Position numbers and translations under genes: made by a program | Part shown: piece by piece, positions 53,617 through 62,187 of the stretch | Layout of the letters: the number at the start of each line of letters is the position of its first letter | Position numbering within the stretch: position 1 is the stretch's first letter | Assembly (NCBI GenBank): GCA_965223545.1 | Contig: OZ245006.1 | Location: 6,624,001-6,688,000, forward strand | Direction: 5' to 3' | Length of the DNA stretch: 64,000 nt | Source of the DNA: Planctomycetota bacterium | Lineage (GTDB): Bacteria; Planctomycetota; UBA1135; UBA2386 | Notes under the pieces: generated by a model | What the model saw: only the letters and a program-made list of their open reading frames with translations | Told to the model about the DNA's origin: nothing | Database searches by the model: none

Positions 53617-53985
53617 CGTCCGGTCCCCGTAAGCCGGGTTCTGATCCCGCCGCGAGGGCGGTGGCGATCATTTCTCGAGGCGCGCCCTCACGGGTGCGCT
53701 CCAACGACCAACCCGAAGGCCTGGGCGCGGGCCACGCGACCTTCCTACACGGTCTTTCTCCGGGTGGGGTTTGCCATGCCGGGGCGGTCGCCCGCCCCGC
53801 GGTGAGCTCTTACCTCGCCATTTCACCCTTACCGTCGCCCCTTGCGGGGCCGGCCGGCGGTGTCGTTTCTGTGGCACTTTCCCTGATCTCGCGATCGGTG
53901 GGCGTTACCCACCACCCTGCCCTGAGGAGCCCGGACTTTCCTCCCGCGGGGCCAGGCCCGCCGGCGATCGCCCGGGGACCGGACG
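53617..53985 (-). ncRNA. rnpB: RNase P RNA (bacterial type A)
   Basis: GAGGAAAGTCCGGGCTC, GGAAAGTGCCACAGAAA, GGCAAACCCCACCCGGAG, AGAACCCGGCTTA; P1 helix 53617-53628 with 53974-53985; followed by T6. Confidence 0.97.
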
Positions 53986-54167
53986 GGGGCGGAGCATAGT
54001 GGTCCGCCGGGGTCGGGCGACAAGTCGTCTCGGGAATCGCCCCCCTTGTTGGTGCGCGAGGGTCTGCTACTGTCCGTTGTGGTGGTCGTTCCGCCTGCCC
54101 ATCTCCGAATCGGAACGAGCGCCGCCCTCGAAGCTCGACCCCTGGGACTCGCACCCCTCGCTCGCCC

Positions 54168-55914: not shown

Positions 55915-58900
55915 TCAGAAGTCCTTGGTCTTCGCCGGCGCGGTGTACGCCGGGATCGGGTCGATGCGGCGCCGATCGGGCCGGCCCTGGAACAGCCACC
56001 GCGGCCGCGCCTCCGGCGAGCGCAGATAGCCGAACACCTGGAAGCCGACGACTTGCGAGGTCAGCAGGTTGACCACGCGCGGCAGGATCAACCAGTCCGC
56101 GGTGCCGGCGAACAGGTCGGGAAACTCCAGGTCGATGTCGAGGTAGCCGTCGAACGTCAAGTTGCCGGCGCCGACCACCTTGACCTGGGGCGAGGTCACC
56201 TGCAGATCGTCGATCTGGATGCGTTGGTCGCCGATCGCGTAGCGCAGGCTCGCGCCGTCGAACTGGGGGCGATTGTTCGGGGCCAAGAACGCGTAGATCG
56301 CCGAGAAGATCGGCACCTCGCCGAGGCGGCCGTGGCTGATCTGCAGGTCACCCGTGGCGCGCATGTCGATCAGCTCGGTGCCGACCAGTCGCTCGAGCTG
56401 CAGCCTGCCGGCGAGGGTGCCGCGCGCGACCGGCGCGGCGGCGCCGAGGTCGCCCATCAGGTCGCGCAGCTGCACGCTGTCCCACTCGAGGCTCGCCGAC
56501 AGCGCCTCTTCGTCGAGCTGGTAGACGAGGCTGGGGGTGTCGTCGGTCGGTCCGCGCACCGCTCCGCCGTGCAGGTTGCCGATCAGTCGATGCAGCGCGA
56601 ACTGCGTCGGGGTCGCGCGCAGGCTGGCGCGGAAGCCGCGCAGTGGGTGGCCGAGGAGGTCGAACGACACGTCCTGCAGGTCGGCGTCGACCTGCCCGCC
56701 GGTCGGCATGATCTTGGCGTCGCGCAGCCGGACTGCTCCCGACAGCTGCCGGATCGGCACCACCAGCCGCATCTCGAGGCCGCGCGCCATCACCTCGCCG
56801 TCGAACTCGAGCGTGAAGTCCTCGCCGCCTTCCTCGAATGCGTAGTGCATCGCCAGACCGTCGATGCGCACCGGCCCGCGGATGCGACGGTCGAGGAACG
56901 TCTGCCGCAGCGGCCCGGTGATCAGGTTGGCAAACCGGTCGTCGACGACGAGGTGGTCCGCCGACAGAGTCGTGCGGATGTAGGACTTGCCGTCGGCACT
57001 GCCGAACGCGCCGCCGGTGAACAGCAGCGCCGCGTCGTCGAGCCGGCCGCGGACGTCCTCGAAGGAGCCGCGGCCGTCGGCGAAGTGGACCTCGCCGCGC
57101 AGTGCCGTGATCGGGCCCGGCAGGAACGCGGCGGCGGTTTGCACGTCGCGCAGGGCGATCCGCACCGTGTTCTGGGTCGCCTCGCTGCCGGCCTGCTTGA
57201 CGAAGTGGCTGACCAAGTCGATCGCGCCCGACGGCTGCAGCATGTCCCAGGTCTCGCGGTCGAGCAGGCCGGTCTTGACCAGGGTGTCGGCCAGGGCGGC
57301 GTTGAGCGGCAGATCGCGCAAGACGGTGGTGAGGTCGAGGGCCCGGTCGTCGGGGTCGGAGTCGATGCTGCCCTCGAGCAGAACTCCGGCGGTGGTTCCC
57401 TCGCCGGTGTCGAGCACGCCGCGCAGCATGCGGATGTCGACGTGGTTGTCGTTGCCCGAACCGCGGACGACGGCGGTCCCGTGCAGACTGTCGACGCGGC
57501 GCTCGAAGGTCGGCGCCAGCACCGAGCTGTCGGTGAAGTCGAGCTGCAGCTTGTGCTCGTATGCATCGCTGCCCACCGGCTGCCAGACGGTCACGGCGCA
57601 GCGCACCGTGCCGCGCGGATCGAAGTCTCGCCACAGCGCGCCGAGATCCGGGCTCAACGCGGTCACCGCGTCGTGCAGCGCGTCGTCGAGCGGGATGCGG
57701 TCGCCGGTGACCCAGAGTCGCGAGCGCAGGCCGTCCTCGGCGGAGTGCAGCTGGTAGCTGCCGCCGATATCGACGACGGCGCCGGCGCGCTGGCCGCTGA
57801 GCTCGAACGCGAGGTCGTCGGGGCCGATCTCGATCGAGCCGGTGATGCCCTCGAGGCGGTAGGGAAAGGCGTCGTAGCTGACGCTGCAGCCCAGCGGTTG
57901 CAGGGTGACGTGCACCTCGGTGGGGGCCGTGCCAGAATGGACGTCGATCGCCACCCTCGCGTCGCTGCGCCCTTGCGGCGAAAACCGGTCGTAGATCGCG
58001 GCCCCCTCGCCGCGCAGCACGGTGTCGACGGCGGTGCGCAGTTCGTCCGAGAACGCCAGGCCCGTGCCGTCGATCTCGAGCCGCATCGAGCGTTGGTCGG
58101 GGGCGTCGTCGACTCCTTCGATGGCGCCGTTGATGTGGACCGTGCCGCCATCGGCCCGCTTGCCCTCGAGGTCGGCGATGACGACGCGACTCGGGCGCAG
58201 ATGGATCGAGCCGCGGACGTCGTCGATGGCGAACGGGAAGCCGAGCGGCGCGCTGCCGTCACTCTGCTCGAAGCCGGTGAACGAGCCGCTGACGCCGTGC
58301 AGCACCAGATCCATCGACGGGGCGGGTGGCGCGCCGCCGCTGGCGGCCAGCGACAACACCGCGTCGATCCTTCCGTTGCGCGGCGAGAACGCGTTCCACA
58401 TCCGGCGCACTGGCGCCAGCTCGCCCAGGCTGCGCTGCAGGGTGTCGTCCACCGGGATCTGCTCGGCCTCGACCGACACGTCGAACGCCGGCACGTCGCC
58501 GAGCACGTCGGTGACCGCGCCGCGCACGCGGAGCTTCCCCTGGCCTTGGCGCGCGTGCGCGTCGAAGGTGATCGCGCCGCCACCGGCGGTGGTCGCCCCC
58601 AGCTTCGCCGTGGCACCGTCGATCGGATAGGGAACCTCGGGCGCGGTGATTGCGACGGCGGTGAGGTCGGCGTTCAGCCGTGCCGTCACCGCCGCATCGT
58701 CGCCGGCCTCGGCGGGGTACTGGATCCAGAGCGAGATGCGGTCGGCGTTGGCGGTGAAGCCCGCGCGCCGCAGATACTGCTCGAGGGCGCGGTGGTAGGG
58801 GCGCGCGGTGTCGGCCGAGAGCGGCACGTCGGCGGTTTCCAGCAGTGCGCGGAACTCGGAGCGCGCGAGATCGGCCGTTCCCCGCACGGTGATCTCGAAG

Positions 58901-59469
58901 CCCGCCGCGCTGCTCATCGAGCCGCTGAGCGCCATGCGCTGATCGTCCGCCGCATCGGGCAGCAGCTGCAGCGAGACGGCGTCGAACACGAGCTCGGGGG
59001 AGCCGGGGCGCAGCTGCAGCGATACTCGCGAATTCGTCACCGAGACCGCGGGATAGCCGCCGTCGCCGCCGGTCTCTTCGGGCAGCTGCAGGATGTCGCT
59101 CCAGTCGAGCTCACCGCTCTCGGTCAAGCTCAGCCGCAGGTCGAGGCCCTCGATGTGCACCTGCCGCAGCGTGCCGACCCCGGTGGCGTCGAGTGGGTTG
59201 GTGTTGACGTCGAGCTCGATGTTGCCGGCGCTCAACACCGGGGCCTCGCCGGGGTCGGGGTGGGCGATGCGCACGCCGGTGAGCCGGACGCGGCCGGTGG
59301 TCGGGTCGAGGTCGGCGTCGGCGAGGTCGAATTGGCCGCGGATGAACTTGGCCATGACCTGCTGGACGAACGCGCGGGTCGCGCCCGAGTGCCGCAAGAT
59401 GGCGTAGGTCGTCGTCAGCAGGACGGCGAAGAAGCCGACGAACAGCAGGATGATGGTCTTTCGGGACAC
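55915..59469 (-). CDS. AsmA-like (repeating beta-groove) envelope protein
   Basis: N-terminal TM anchor, long beta-rich repeats (YPIDGATA, FPFAIDDVRG, FPYRLEGITG), AsmA-like C-terminus (GAGNLTFDGYLDIDL). Confidence 0.78.
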   Translation of the reverse strand: MSRKTIILLFVGFFAVLLTTTYAILRHSGATRAFVQQVMAKFIRGQFDLADADLDPTTGRVRLTGVRIAHPDPGEAPVLSAGNIELDVNTNPLDATGVGTLRQVHIEGLDLRLSLTESGELDWSDILQLPEETGGDGGYPAVSVTNSRVSLQLRPGSPELVFDAVSLQLLPDAADDQRMALSGSMSSAAGFEITVRGTADLARSEFRALLETADVPLSADTARPYHRALEQYLRRAGFTANADRISLWIQYPAEAGDDAAVTARLNADLTAVAITAPEVPYPIDGATAKLGATTAGGGAITFDAHARQGQGKLRVRGAVTDVLGDVPAFDVSVEAEQIPVDDTLQRSLGELAPVRRMWNAFSPRNGRIDAVLSLAASGGAPPAPSMDLVLHGVSGSFTGFEQSDGSAPLGFPFAIDDVRGSIHLRPSRVVIADLEGKRADGGTVHINGAIEGVDDAPDQRSMRLEIDGTGLAFSDELRTAVDTVLRGEGAAIYDRFSPQGRSDARVAIDVHSGTAPTEVHVTLQPLGCSVSYDAFPYRLEGITGSIEIGPDDLAFELSGQRAGAVVDIGGSYQLHSAEDGLRSRLWVTGDRIPLDDALHDAVTALSPDLGALWRDFDPRGTVRCAVTVWQPVGSDAYEHKLQLDFTDSSVLAPTFERRVDSLHGTAVVRGSGNDNHVDIRMLRGVLDTGEGTTAGVLLEGSIDSDPDDRALDLTTVLRDLPLNAALADTLVKTGLLDRETWDMLQPSGAIDLVSHFVKQAGSEATQNTVRIALRDVQTAAAFLPGPITALRGEVHFADGRGSFEDVRGRLDDAALLFTGGAFGSADGKSYIRTTLSADHLVVDDRFANLITGPLRQTFLDRRIRGPVRIDGLAMHYAFEEGGEDFTLEFDGEVMARGLEMRLVVPIRQLSGAVRLRDAKIMPTGGQVDADLQDVSFDLLGHPLRGFRASLRATPTQFALHRLIGNLHGGAVRGPTDDTPSLVYQLDEEALSASLEWDSVQLRDLMGDLGAAAPVARGTLAGRLQLERLVGTELIDMRATGDLQISHGRLGEVPIFSAIYAFLAPNNRPQFDGASLRYAIGDQRIQIDDLQVTSPQVKVVGAGNLTFDGYLDIDLEFPDLFAGTADWLILPRVVNLLTSQVVGFQVFGYLRSPEARPRWLFQGRPDRRRIDPIPAYTAPAKTKDF

Positions 59470-59620
59470 GGCTCGCTGGGGCGCTGAGTCAGTGGGGGCG
59501 TGGCGCGAGGCGGCGATCAGCGGCCGGTGCGGCCCGCCGGATTTGTCTCTCCAAGCGCGTCGAGATCAGGCTGATTTCGCTCCAGAATGGCGTTTTCGGC
59601 ACGGAAACGGGGGTTTTGCG

Positions 59621-59648
59621 TTGACACAAATGCGCCGCGAGCCAAACT
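59621..59648 (+). promoter_or_regulatory. Sigma70-type promoter of the histone-fold gene
   Basis: Perfect TTGACA at 59621, then CAAACT after a 16-nt spacer. Confidence 0.55.
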
Positions 59649-59727
59649 CGCCAGCGCTAACGCGAGTGACACGCCGAGGGGGTGTGTCGCCGGCCCTACG
59701 ATCATCCACACAGAAGGATCGAAACCG

Positions 59728-59925
59728 ATGGCAGCCAGAAGAAAAAAGGCGGCGCCGCCAGAGCTCATCATCTCCAAGTCGCGCACCAAAAACGCGGTGA
59801 GGAAGTGCAACGTCTCCGGCGATTTCTACGGAGCTCTGGACGCGGCTGTGCGCAGCCTGATCAAGACGGCCGAGGGCCGCGCGCTCGAGAACAAGCGCAA
59901 GACCCTCAAGCCCTGCGATCTGTAG
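59728..59925 (+). CDS. Bacterial histone-fold protein (singlet, Bd0055/DUF1931-like), 65 aa
   Basis: ELIISKSRTK...NVSGDFYGALDAAVRSLIKTAEGRALENKRKTLKPCDL shows the alpha2 helix and RKTxxxxD L2 signature; GAAGGA RBS. Confidence 0.85.
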   Translation: MAARRKKAAPPELIISKSRTKNAVRKCNVSGDFYGALDAAVRSLIKTAEGRALENKRKTLKPCDL

Positions 59926-60017
59926 AGCGTCCGCTGCCGGCGGGTCGCCTCGGTGGCACGCCAGCCCGCCCTCTTAGGGGGCGGCCCTCTGCCGCGGCGC
60001 GTTCTGCGCGCCGCGTG

Positions 60018-60056
60018 AACACGCGAAGGACTCCCGCCTTCGCGTGTTTTTGTTTG
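60018..60056 (+). terminator. Intrinsic terminator after the histone gene
   Basis: AACACGCGAAGG-ACTCCCG-CCTTCGCGTGTT stem followed by TTTGTTTG. Confidence 0.8.
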
Positions 60057-60081
60057 TTTGGGAGCGTGGCGGCGTCGAGCG

Positions 60082-62187
60082 CTACAGACCGATCGTCAGA
60101 TCCACCGCGATCGTCGTAAGAAACCCTTGCACTGCGGTCGGGTCCAAGACCACGGCCTGCGTGTGGAGTTGGATTCCGCCGAGGGCCGCGGGCTCCGGAA
60201 TCGGCAGGGGCATGGTCGCAAAGCCACTCGTCCCGGTCACGGCGGGCAACGAGGTCGCCAGCGCCCCGGGATCGATCAAGAGCTGGCAGCCACCGGCAAG
60301 CGTGAGTTGCAGGGGCGCGGTCGAGATCAAGATCGCGGCAGCGCTCTGGCTGCTGCCGCGGAAGACATCGAATCCGAACGAGCGGTTACCCAAGTGGGGC
60401 TTGCCGAAGGACTCGAGCAAGGGCTGCGCCGAGGTGCTCATACAGCCGGCGCCGCGCCGCGCCACGGTAGCGATCGGCAACCTGGTCATCACTTGCGTGG
60501 TCGGATAGCGCTCGATGATCAAGCGCTTGCGAAACGAGTCGTATGCCGCGATGCCCGGTCCAACCGGTGGCGTCGAGACGGGCTGCCAGCCCGAAGTGCT
60601 CCAGCGCCAAACCGCGCTCCCGACCAGGAGCATCTCGTCGCGGTCCGCGTCCCAATGCAACTCGGTCCTCTCTTGGGTCGGTCCATTGTTCTGCAGTAGC
60701 GTCCAGCCGTCGCCGTCCCACTCCCAGGTATCGTCGAACCACTGCAGCGGAACCGATGGTTGGACAACGCCAGGGGAGCCATAGGTCGCCCCTCCGTGCA
60801 GCATGATCGTGCCGCGCTGCGGATGAAAGGCCATCGCTGCGGCAGATCGCGGCGACGGGCCCTGGCTCGCGGCGAGGCCCCACTGGCCGTCATCCCACCT
60901 CCACGTCTCGCCGTAGTTGGTCGTGACGTTGTATGAGCTGACTGCCCGCACTCGATAGCCACCGAACAGGATGGCGGCGCCGCTCGGCTCGTGGGCGAGG
61001 CCTGGCTCCACGTAGCCCGGCGCGCCTCCGAGACGCCGCCAGGCCGCTCCGTCGTAGGAGTACGTGTCACCGGTCCAAGGGGCGAACTCGCGCGCCGTCA
61101 CCACCCAGAGCTGCCGCAGCCGGTCGTTCCACATCGGAGAAAGCCGCGTGAAGACTCCGAAAGGGCTCGGCGCCGAGTCCTGTACCCACTCGATACCATT
61201 CCAGCTCCAAGCGCTTCCGATGCCGACGGCGATCGACTGGCGGCGCCGGGCATCGTAAGTGAGGTTGGAGACGAAAGGCCGCCGCAGAACGAGCTGCCAG
61301 CGCGTGCCGTCCCAGGAGGCGACATGGCCCTCGGTAGCGTGGGCGAGCAAGCCGCTGCGCGTCGACACCAGCCACCTTGACCCAGGTGCCGGCGGCAACG
61401 CGGCCCACTGGCTGCCATCCCAGCTCCACGCCTGGGTGGGCGTCGAGGACTTGGTTTCGAACAGAACGATGGTGGCCGTCGTCGGATCCCAAGCCATTGC
61501 CAGACCTGGGTTGATTTGCGTTGGGCCGCCGCTGGTCGTGCGTGCGCTCCATACCACGCCGTCCCACTCCCAAGTCGTCGCGTCAACGCCGTTGTGGAGC
61601 ACGATCACCTGGCGCAGTGGGTCGTACGCGAGTGCCACCGAGCCAGCGCGTCGCGTCGGCGCCATCGGTGCAGGCGCCTGCCGCCAACTGCTCCCGTCCC
61701 ATAGCCAGGTCTCGGCGTTGTAGCCCGAGGTGGATGGCGCCGATCCTCCGAACACCATGAGCTCGCCGCGGGCCGCGTCGTACGCCATGCGGTGTACGAG
61801 GCGCGGGCTGGGGCCGCCACCGTCGTCGAGCAGAGTCCAATCGACGCCGTCGAAGCTCCACAGCTCGGCATTGGGAGTACCTGAGCCATCGCTGCCCCCG
61901 AACAGCAACACGTTGCCAACCGCGTCGGCAGCGAGCGCGGAGCCGACGCGGTCGATCGGCATCGTCGATGGTTGGCGACTCACCCATCCACCGTTCCACT
62001 CCCACACGGCTTCCTGTCCGGGAGCGCCGACGTACGCCACGATCCGATCCCGAACCGGGTCGTAGGTCACTTCGGTGGAGGATACGGTCCTGGGTGCGAG
62101 TGTCCGTGATGACCAAGACGGCGGTTGGGCTACCAGGAGCCACGGCGCCCAGACTGCGACGACCACGGACGAAAGGGCTCGGGGCAT
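60082..62187 (-). CDS. Secreted kelch-like/Trp-repeat beta-propeller protein with recurrent C-terminal domain
   Basis: Repeats such as MAYDAARGELMVFGG...ETWLWDGSSW; GAGGAGG RBS; signal peptide. Confidence 0.85.
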   Translation of the reverse strand: MPRALSSVVVAVWAPWLLVAQPPSWSSRTLAPRTVSSTEVTYDPVRDRIVAYVGAPGQEAVWEWNGGWVSRQPSTMPIDRVGSALAADAVGNVLLFGGSDGSGTPNAELWSFDGVDWTLLDDGGGPSPRLVHRMAYDAARGELMVFGGSAPSTSGYNAETWLWDGSSWRQAPAPMAPTRRAGSVALAYDPLRQVIVLHNGVDATTWEWDGVVWSARTTSGGPTQINPGLAMAWDPTTATIVLFETKSSTPTQAWSWDGSQWAALPPAPGSRWLVSTRSGLLAHATEGHVASWDGTRWQLVLRRPFVSNLTYDARRRQSIAVGIGSAWSWNGIEWVQDSAPSPFGVFTRLSPMWNDRLRQLWVVTAREFAPWTGDTYSYDGAAWRRLGGAPGYVEPGLAHEPSGAAILFGGYRVRAVSSYNVTTNYGETWRWDDGQWGLAASQGPSPRSAAAMAFHPQRGTIMLHGGATYGSPGVVQPSVPLQWFDDTWEWDGDGWTLLQNNGPTQERTELHWDADRDEMLLVGSAVWRWSTSGWQPVSTPPVGPGIAAYDSFRKRLIIERYPTTQVMTRLPIATVARRGAGCMSTSAQPLLESFGKPHLGNRSFGFDVFRGSSQSAAAILISTAPLQLTLAGGCQLLIDPGALATSLPAVTGTSGFATMPLPIPEPAALGGIQLHTQAVVLDPTAVQGFLTTIAVDLTIGL

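Follow-up and report, generated by a model that had tools for sequence, protein, structure and literature searches.

The window analysed here is a stretch of DNA of 64,000 nucleotides. A short open reading frame on its forward strand encodes a histone of 65 residues, termed the query histone below. The translated sequence is identical to that given in the initial annotation, which had described a stand-alone bacterial histone with a short basic N-terminal tail; this description is supported, the protein being a singlet histone whose tail is translated. The features of the locus, in window coordinates, are as follows.

55915–59469, minus strand: divergent neighbouring gene (1184 residues) with a weak DUF748 match (Pfam E = 1.8e-9, below the cut-off).
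59621–59648, plus strand: candidate promoter with −35 TTGACA (59621–59626), a 16-nt spacer and −10 CAAACT (59643–59648).
59666–59690, plus strand: 5′ leader hairpin with a 10-pair stem closing GCC-GAGGG-GGT, between the promoter and the ribosome-binding site, about 40 nt from the ATG (folding and covariation).
59714–59718, plus strand: putative Shine–Dalgarno-like AAGGA, 9 nt upstream of the ATG (from sequence).
59728–59925 (ATG to TAG), plus strand: query histone gene, 65 residues, pI 10.4, 16 Lys/Arg versus 6 Asp/Glu (ORF, homology and model).
59731–59760, plus strand: basic N-terminal tail, residues 2–11 (AARRKKAAPP; pLDDT 53 over residues 1–10).
59878–59922, plus strand: face-to-face (FtF) tetramer and RD-clamp motif, R51-xxx-N55-x-R57-K58-T59-xxxx-D64-L65-end (alignment and mapping to HLp and HTkC).
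59927–60015, plus strand: three hairpins rich in G+C within the 3′ untranslated region (RNA folding).
60017–60059, plus strand: intrinsic terminator with a 13-pair stem (60017–60049) and a T-run.
60082: end of a kelch-repeat gene convergent to the histone gene (ORF list and Pfam).

The histone reading frame is contained, in the same frame, within a 112-residue ORF that starts at ATG 59587. An in-frame stop codon is found no more than 47 codons upstream in 118 of 167 homologous loci; the 112-residue extension is therefore not conserved, and the reading from ATG 59587 was rejected. The coding sequence has an AT-richer start (GC3 of 0.65 in codons 2–7 versus 0.85 in the core) and contains no internal methionine. 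Translation is placed at Met1, ahead of the basic tail, and the concern that the true start might lie 3′ of the tail was not borne out. A methionine at the L13 position is present in 16 of the 167 homologues (L012, L018, L024, L032 and others) and could be an internal start for a tail-less form; the query gene itself does not have this methionine at position 13.

The −35 hexamer of the promoter proposed earlier is exact, but the −10 element agrees with TATAAT at three of six positions and is too weak for a consensus scan, which for this reason returned no promoters. A loose TTG[AC][CA]-N17-19-[TC]ANNNT pattern recurs ahead of the gene at 53 of the 104 homologous loci (a raw count with no shuffled control), and in loci of the same family it often reads TTGAC...CAAACT. 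The ribosome-binding site, also noted initially, is present as a modest site, and the intrinsic terminator is found as described, with its full stem and T-run. Terminator-like sites follow 111 of 161 homologous genes versus 20 of 167 control windows. The 3′ region of the query gene has a fold z of −4.4, with the three extra hairpins ahead of the terminator. These are stable and might act as a 3′ stabilizer or belong to a small repeat element; they have no Rfam match at the gathering level, and no comparable cluster stood out among the downstream sequences listed for the homologues.

The divergent 1184-residue gene and the convergent kelch-repeat gene flank the histone gene, which is thus monocistronic by layout. 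The divergent gene, whose product we take to be AsmA/TamB-like, has a conserved position: it recurs ahead of the histone gene at 26 of 49 same-family loci and six of 75 loci from titled records (32 in total, many flanks being short), with no sign of a functional link between the two. High expression of the query histone is plausible, judging from these signals and from the family. Elsewhere in the window, an ORF-poor, structured-looking stretch at approximately 53668–53990 (minus strand) has the look of a gene for RNase P RNA. Outside the window, a ribosomal protein L3 gene (L299; C1:1637825–1638535, minus strand) has no further S10-operon genes nearby after ORF filtering.

Homology at E ≤ 0.001 was found for 882 of 883 candidates, and the best 119 after the query itself are 68–89% identical to it, which argues that the ORF is not a chance reading. 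Conservation among near homologues was assessed on an alignment of 118 of the best 120 homologues that was not selected by motif (P0080 and P0104, which have annotated upstream extensions, were left out). Locus features were taken from 179 of 191 loci (167 distinct) read by a parser that itself required the Arg, Thr and Asp of the motif. The AF2 monomer model (pLDDT 83.4) contains helices at residues 17–21 and 33–54 (22 residues) and a one-turn α3 with helical residues 62–64. This predicted monomer is a truncated (α3) histone fold, in agreement with the initial annotation; an α3 cut to 3–4 residues and a short α2, the marks of α3 histones (Schwab 2024), are both seen in the model.

Structural comparison of the model matched HLp (Z = 7.0, r.m.s.d. 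1.3 over 54 aligned residues), HTkC (Z = 6.8, r.m.s.d. 1.4, 54 residues) and HBb (Z = 6.6, r.m.s.d. 1.4, 53 residues), with all other chains at Z ≤ 5.0 (HPhA, 4.6). Since the three leading scores are within 1 Z of each other, the monomer model cannot separate the FtF from the dimer type. Foldseek also ranked HTkC and HLp first, with no row reaching E = 0.001. A single-protein search of solved structures gave HTkC at E = 0.002 and HLp at E = 0.15, and a profile search gave HTkC at E = 3e-8 and HLp at E = 3e-4, with no HBb chain at E ≤ 1. In the HMM check suggested with the initial annotation (DUF1931/CBFD_NFYB_HMF), no Pfam histone model matched the query at E ≤ 1, and the two models matched 23 and 8, respectively, of the 118 aligned members at E ≤ 0.1, all weakly. 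NCBIfam gave two matches to the query, both far below the cut-off.

Two known histone classes were rejected. A DUF1931 pseudodimeric histone would have two folds in ∼140 residues, whereas the query is a single 65-residue fold, and its genome has no PF09123 match at E ≤ 1; some homologues do carry the NCBI name DUF1931. An archaeal nucleosomal histone of the HMf type was set aside owing to the truncated α3, the absence of a PF00808 match at E ≤ 1 and the Z of 4.6 for HPhA. Some homologues of ∼120 residues (such as P0156, P0161, P0172, P0175 and P0176), with two profile matches each, may be natural tandem doublets of FtF-like folds.

FtF histones are defined by a toroidal tetramer with a conserved Arg, a conserved Asn and an RxTxxxxD motif, and bacterial dimer histones are described as lacking the Arg and Asn of the dimer–dimer contact (Schwab 2024, PMC11390915, in its accessible part). 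In the query histone the Arg and Asn (HMM positions 48 and 52) are present as R51 and N55, which align to R49 and N53 of HLp, and RxTxxxxD is formed by R57, T59 and D64. Residues R51, N55, R57, K58, T59 and D64 are invariant in all 118 near homologues (the best 120 of 883 minus two). The C-terminal carboxylate is placed to face the tetramer Arg, with L65 located 14 residues after R51, as F63 is after R49 in HLp; the chain ends one residue past D64 in all 167 parsed loci. The complete motif is likewise counted in 167 of 167 loci, a number with some circularity, since Arg, Thr and Asp were required for a locus to be parsed; among the 12 loci missed by the parser, the R-N-R-T-D-end spacing is kept in 11, and the remaining one encodes a histone of another type. 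Overall, R51/N55/R57/D64/L65 map onto R49/N53/R55/D62/F63 of HLp, with R45 as the equivalent Arg in HTkC. The basic α1 residues of the FtF type are present as K17, R19 and K21, also invariant (118/118), which correspond to K7/K9/K11 of HTkC and A13/K15/K17 of HLp.

Both of these relatives have been characterized. The HLp tetramer is made by R49, N53 and R55, and HLp wraps ∼60 bp of DNA non-specifically (PMC12701072); HTkC also wraps DNA and falls to dimers when R45 is replaced by Ala (10.64898/2025.12.06.692711). We conclude, with a probability of roughly 0.85, that the query gene is a monocistronic housekeeping gene for a bacterial FtF histone whose product would form a ring tetramer that wraps DNA. 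The tetramer is the most likely state to judge from the residues. A dimer of the Bd0055/HBb kind that bends or coats DNA without forming a tetramer is very improbable: HBb is within 1 Z of the top match, the RKTxxxxD motif is common to both and the L1 loop of the query is shortened, but the contact Arg and Asn, which bacterial dimers are reported to lack in the part of PMC11390915 available, are both present and invariant in the query subfamily, and the profile that matches HTkC and HLp finds no HBb chain at E ≤ 1. The comparison with Bd0055 made in the initial annotation accordingly gives way to one with HLp and HTkC, given the invariant R51 and N55 and a profile search free of HBb.

By analogy with HLp and HTkC, two handshake dimers would close into the ring tetramer through R51, N55, R57 and the L65 carboxylate. 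Sequence-independent DNA contacts would be made by K17, S18, R19, K21 and R25 together with the L1–L2 loops (K58 and T59), and ∼60 bp of DNA may be wrapped around the ring, as for HLp. The L1 loop is two residues shorter than that of HLp and four shorter than that of HTkC, and neither HLp T27 nor HTkC R22 is kept, so that the DNA contacts may differ. The genome (91% complete) encodes three HU/IHF-family proteins, alongside which the FtF histone would act.

The basic tail varies far more than the core. Across the 167 loci the tails are 40–50% Lys/Arg, with 12 acidic residues summed over all tails, and their lengths are 6–21 residues in the family of the query (f1; n = 49), 15–58 in f9 (n = 23), 15–47 in f10 (n = 18) and 6–50 in loci from titled records (n = 75). 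In f9, Lys makes up 42% and Ala 28% of the tails, which contain KKAAPKK-like repeats and resemble the tails of linker histone H1. At the f9 loci L153–L175 (e.g. L156 and L175) the same histone core is thus preceded by Lys/Ala/Pro repeats reaching 58 residues, the genomes being mostly of 2–4 Mb, and two f9-like long-tailed proteins (95 and 99 residues) occur in Table S1 of Hocher 2023 (PMC10627809). Short or tail-less members also exist (L025 and one row of Hocher 2023). Tails are described as common and mostly positive in bacterial FtF histones (PMC11390915, accessible part). Thus, of the tail conservation that was to be checked, the basic composition is kept, while sequence and length (6–58) are not, a pattern more in keeping with electrostatic DNA binding than with a read code. 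The disordered Lys/Arg/Ala tail would add non-specific electrostatic grip and compaction, with its length acting as a lineage-specific dial and not as a read code.

The initial annotation had regarded the tail as a possible modification site. As an addition to the FtF histone reading, a eukaryote-like modification platform with dedicated writers and readers could draw on the lysine-rich, almost acid-free composition, on the AA[RK]K or AARR at the start of the tail in 46 of 49 same-family loci and on the presence of one SET-domain and one deacetylase-family gene in the genome itself. It is nevertheless quite unlikely, as the tails are unalignable past their first residues over a length range of 6–58, members with short tails or none exist, and the candidate enzymes do not behave as partners. 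Across the class, 94 of the 251 genomes carry SET genes; in f9, which has the longest tails, these occur in six of 40 genomes versus 39 of 40 for the histone, and several f10 genomes have SET but no histone. The deacetylase family also matches in nine of 14 control genomes. Co-occurrence with SET was therefore rejected as backing for tail methylation, and with variable tails and SET genes that do not track the histone, the proposed modification found no support. The near-constant 53-residue core with tails of 6–58 residues within one class, in which some genomes apparently have no such gene, constitutes a natural series. With this series one can address the effect of a basic tail on a histone particle that is not nucleosomal, a question that HLp and HTkC, with a short tail and none, cannot answer.

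A redox- or metal-sensitive histone, suggested initially from the two cysteines (C27 and C63), would also be an addition to the FtF reading, and we give it hardly any weight. C27 is a cysteine in all 118 near homologues (best 120 of 883 minus two) and in 73 of 75 loci from titled records, as well as in 21 of 23 f9 and both f3 loci. In the family of the query, however, it is Cys in 26 of 49 loci and Ser in the other 23, and it is Cys in none of the 18 f10 loci, where it is deleted. C63 is a cysteine in seven of 167 loci, C27 aligns to F25 of HLp, a hydrophobic packing position, and the query has no CxxC or His cluster. The idea is weak because C63 is rarely Cys, because C27 is replaced across families and because of the alignment to F25. 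The f10 loci (L176–L195) have an L1 loop one residue shorter, with no Cys, and a weak or absent leader hairpin.

The 5′ leader hairpin (59666–59690) has a fold z of −2.4 and an MFE frequency of 0.85. Its core, GCC-GAGGG-GGY, is found 40–53 nt upstream of the ATG in 17 of 167 loci and in none of 192 control windows; all 17 carriers are same-family or titled Planctomycetota, and their loops are GAGGG in 16 and GGAGG in one. In the alignment of these carriers, 89% of cells pair, and five outer pairs change on both sides (22 cells). The covariation score of 0.513, compared with 0.220 for shuffled (0/500) and ≤ 0.18 for slid alignments, is to be read with the inner three pairs fixed by selection and the structure derived from the same sequences. 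Sixteen of the 17 carriers fall in one tree branch (support 0.88) that also holds two non-carriers, so the loop may be inherited. One of these non-carriers, the held-out relative L140, has a variant match in the same place (E = 0.015), although two off-targets among the 45 held-out loci score alike. Elsewhere in f1, among the loci listed, a leader hairpin is retained but its loops are unrelated, and the GAGGG hairpin was found in none of 53 metagenome loci, which by sequence are mostly of other lineages.

Leader structure differs by family: the mean fold z of the first 50 nt is −2.5 in f1 (22 of 35 below −2), −1.6 in f9 (5 of 15) and −0.4 in f10 (1 of 11). Runs of five G are present in 22 of 49 f1 leaders versus 3.7 expected and in 28 of 75 leaders from titled records versus 10.8 expected, with no enrichment in f9 or f10. 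Some Myxococcota-type leaders (L044, L050, L053, L069 and L106) have runs of five to eight G. Rfam gave seven matches on 59400–60200 at E ≤ 10, all far below gathering thresholds. A search with model R1 has its best match in the genome at 59666–59690, by construction, and its other matches are at chance level. The loop was rejected as a regulon element: the genome contains 74 exact copies of the motif, of which this one alone has a stem of at least six pairs and an upstream TTGAC, leaving no second promoter-linked copy. When pairing of the loop was assessed, the trailer did not exceed shuffles, and the leader did so slightly, in a subset of loci.

The simplest and most likely reading is that the hairpin is a stabilizing stem-loop that may shield the 5′ end of an abundant mRNA. 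Alternatively, and again in addition to the FtF histone reading, the GAGGG loop could be bound by a protein, possibly the histone itself, or by the 30S subunit, setting histone dosage post-transcriptionally. This is unlikely, if slightly less so than the additions discussed above. A near-invariant loop on a stem whose five outer pairs covary (22 cells), its fixed position 40–53 nt from the ATG, the L140 variant and the enrichment of G5 runs in titled loci, mostly of other phyla, are what such binding might leave behind. The restriction of 16 carriers to one branch, the unrelated loops on retained hairpins elsewhere in the family (loci listed), the 0/53 in metagenome loci, the fixed inner pairs, the off-targets that score like L140, the single promoter-linked copy and the inconsistent pairing with leader or trailer all weigh against it. 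Were the loop a binding site, a bacterial histone would have a control element that acts after transcription, of which the literature searched gave no example. A broader proposal, in which within one branch a factor (the histone, another RNA-binding protein or 30S) reads the loop to set dosage, superimposed on a cross-phylum subfamily that tunes compaction by H1-like tails of up to 58 residues, is a long shot; if true, bacteria would possess a functional equivalent of the stem-loop control of histone mRNAs. The stabilizing stem-loop remains our preferred reading of the leader. Structured leaders are known for another nucleoid-protein mRNA, that of B. subtilis hbs (HU), in which a structured 5′ UTR governs stability (Braun et al. 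2017, PMC5737220, accessible part); the likeness is one of analogy only, and no loop-to-trailer pairing was found for the query.

The genome of the query contains one match to the histone at E ≤ 0.001 and four weak matches (E = 0.14–1.8), and PF09123 and PF00808, the models for other histones, have none at E ≤ 1 in this 91% complete assembly. Histone matches were found in 33 of 41 relatives and in 184 of the 251 class genomes, as a single copy in almost every case. Among titled records the nearest are Planctomycetota MAGs, and with published members known from UBA1135/UBA2386-type genomes this suggests that the query genome belongs to that class. By family, they are present in 48 of 55 f1, 39 of 40 f9 and 84 of 135 f10 genomes, and in none of the f2 (0/4), f8 (0/3) and f4 (0/1) genomes. 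The 67 of 251 genomes with no match include 30 of the 100 near-complete ones and 51 of the 135 from f10, which indicates that the histone is not needed throughout the class. In genome G013, of the same family, a histone of another planctomycete type (L152) replaces the subfamily member. None of 22 pattern matches in viral contigs was confirmed.

In a sample of the phylum, 115 of 301 genomes match; beyond the class, no match is stronger than E = 1.5e-11. The 53-residue core is 70–83% identical to records titled Myxococcota/Deltaproteobacteria, Eisenbacteria, Krumholzibacteria, Latescibacteria, Methylomirabilota, Acidobacteriota and Spirochaetales (L035–L114), a set formed by the best 80 of 436 matches with titles that follow the submitters, and 28–47% identical to 20 hand-picked histones from other planctomycete classes. 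In a tree of 103 cores, a long branch (97/93) sets the 89 rows of the subfamily apart from the 14 rows of other classes, with little resolved inside. This distribution is suggestive of possible transfer of the subfamily between phyla. The seven Spirochaetota-titled rows scatter among Myxococcota rows and may be mislabelled.

The query protein is of an FtF type already described, in a subfamily already catalogued, and its basic tail is ordinary; as one more uncharacterized FtF histone in a catalogued group, it changes little. Planctomycetota and Myxococcota are the main bacterial hosts of FtF histones, and the source data list bacterial FtF lengths of up to 127 residues (Schwab 2024, PMC11390915, accessible part). 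Table S1 of Hocher 2023 (PMC10627809) contains eight proteins of the same subfamily (56–99 residues, seven with basic tails), from UBA1135/UBA2386/UBA7888-type Planctomycetes and delta/proteobacterial MAGs, which share the core LIISK-x-R...NV...FY-x-ALD...N-x-RKTL. These rows are homology hits, and the subfamily, its cross-phylum closeness and the leader are not discussed in the part of that source available. Peptides of the query had no match in the examined supplements of PMC11390915 and PMC12701072. No paper on the histone of this class was found, and the leader hairpin is the sole feature for which we could not find a published description, in a search largely confined to journals outside subscription.

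Among characterized proteins, HLp of Leptospira perolatii (PDB 9QT0–9QT2; Hu et al. 2025, PMC12701072) shares the truncated fold (r.m.s.d. 1.3 over 54 residues), the tetramer residues (R49/N53/R55), the RD clamp, the chain end 14 residues past the tetramer Arg, a short disordered N-terminus and the α1 S-K patch. It differs in sequence (∼30% identity), in an L1 loop two residues longer and in T27, which is Val in the query. The host of the query has three HU/IHF genes, whereas these Leptospira are reported to have no HU (PMC12701072, accessible part), and the query gene has no adjacent SMC or MAP. HTkC of Thermococcus kodakarensis (PDB 9F2C; PMC11390915; 10.64898/2025.12.06.692711) is the top sequence match among solved structures (33–37% identity) and has in common the V-S-x-x-F-Y-x-A-L stretch, the K-S-K/R α1 patch and the tetramer Arg. 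Unlike the query, HTkC is tail-less, its R22, which enters the minor groove, is Asn in the query, and it has His at the position of the RD-clamp Asp, which the query keeps. Bd0055/HBb of Bdellovibrio bacteriovorus (PDB 8CMP and 8FVX) has the same α3-truncated fold and RKT motif, but it is 23% identical to the query and belongs to the dimer class without the Arg and Asn of the dimer–dimer contact, both of which are kept in the query histone.
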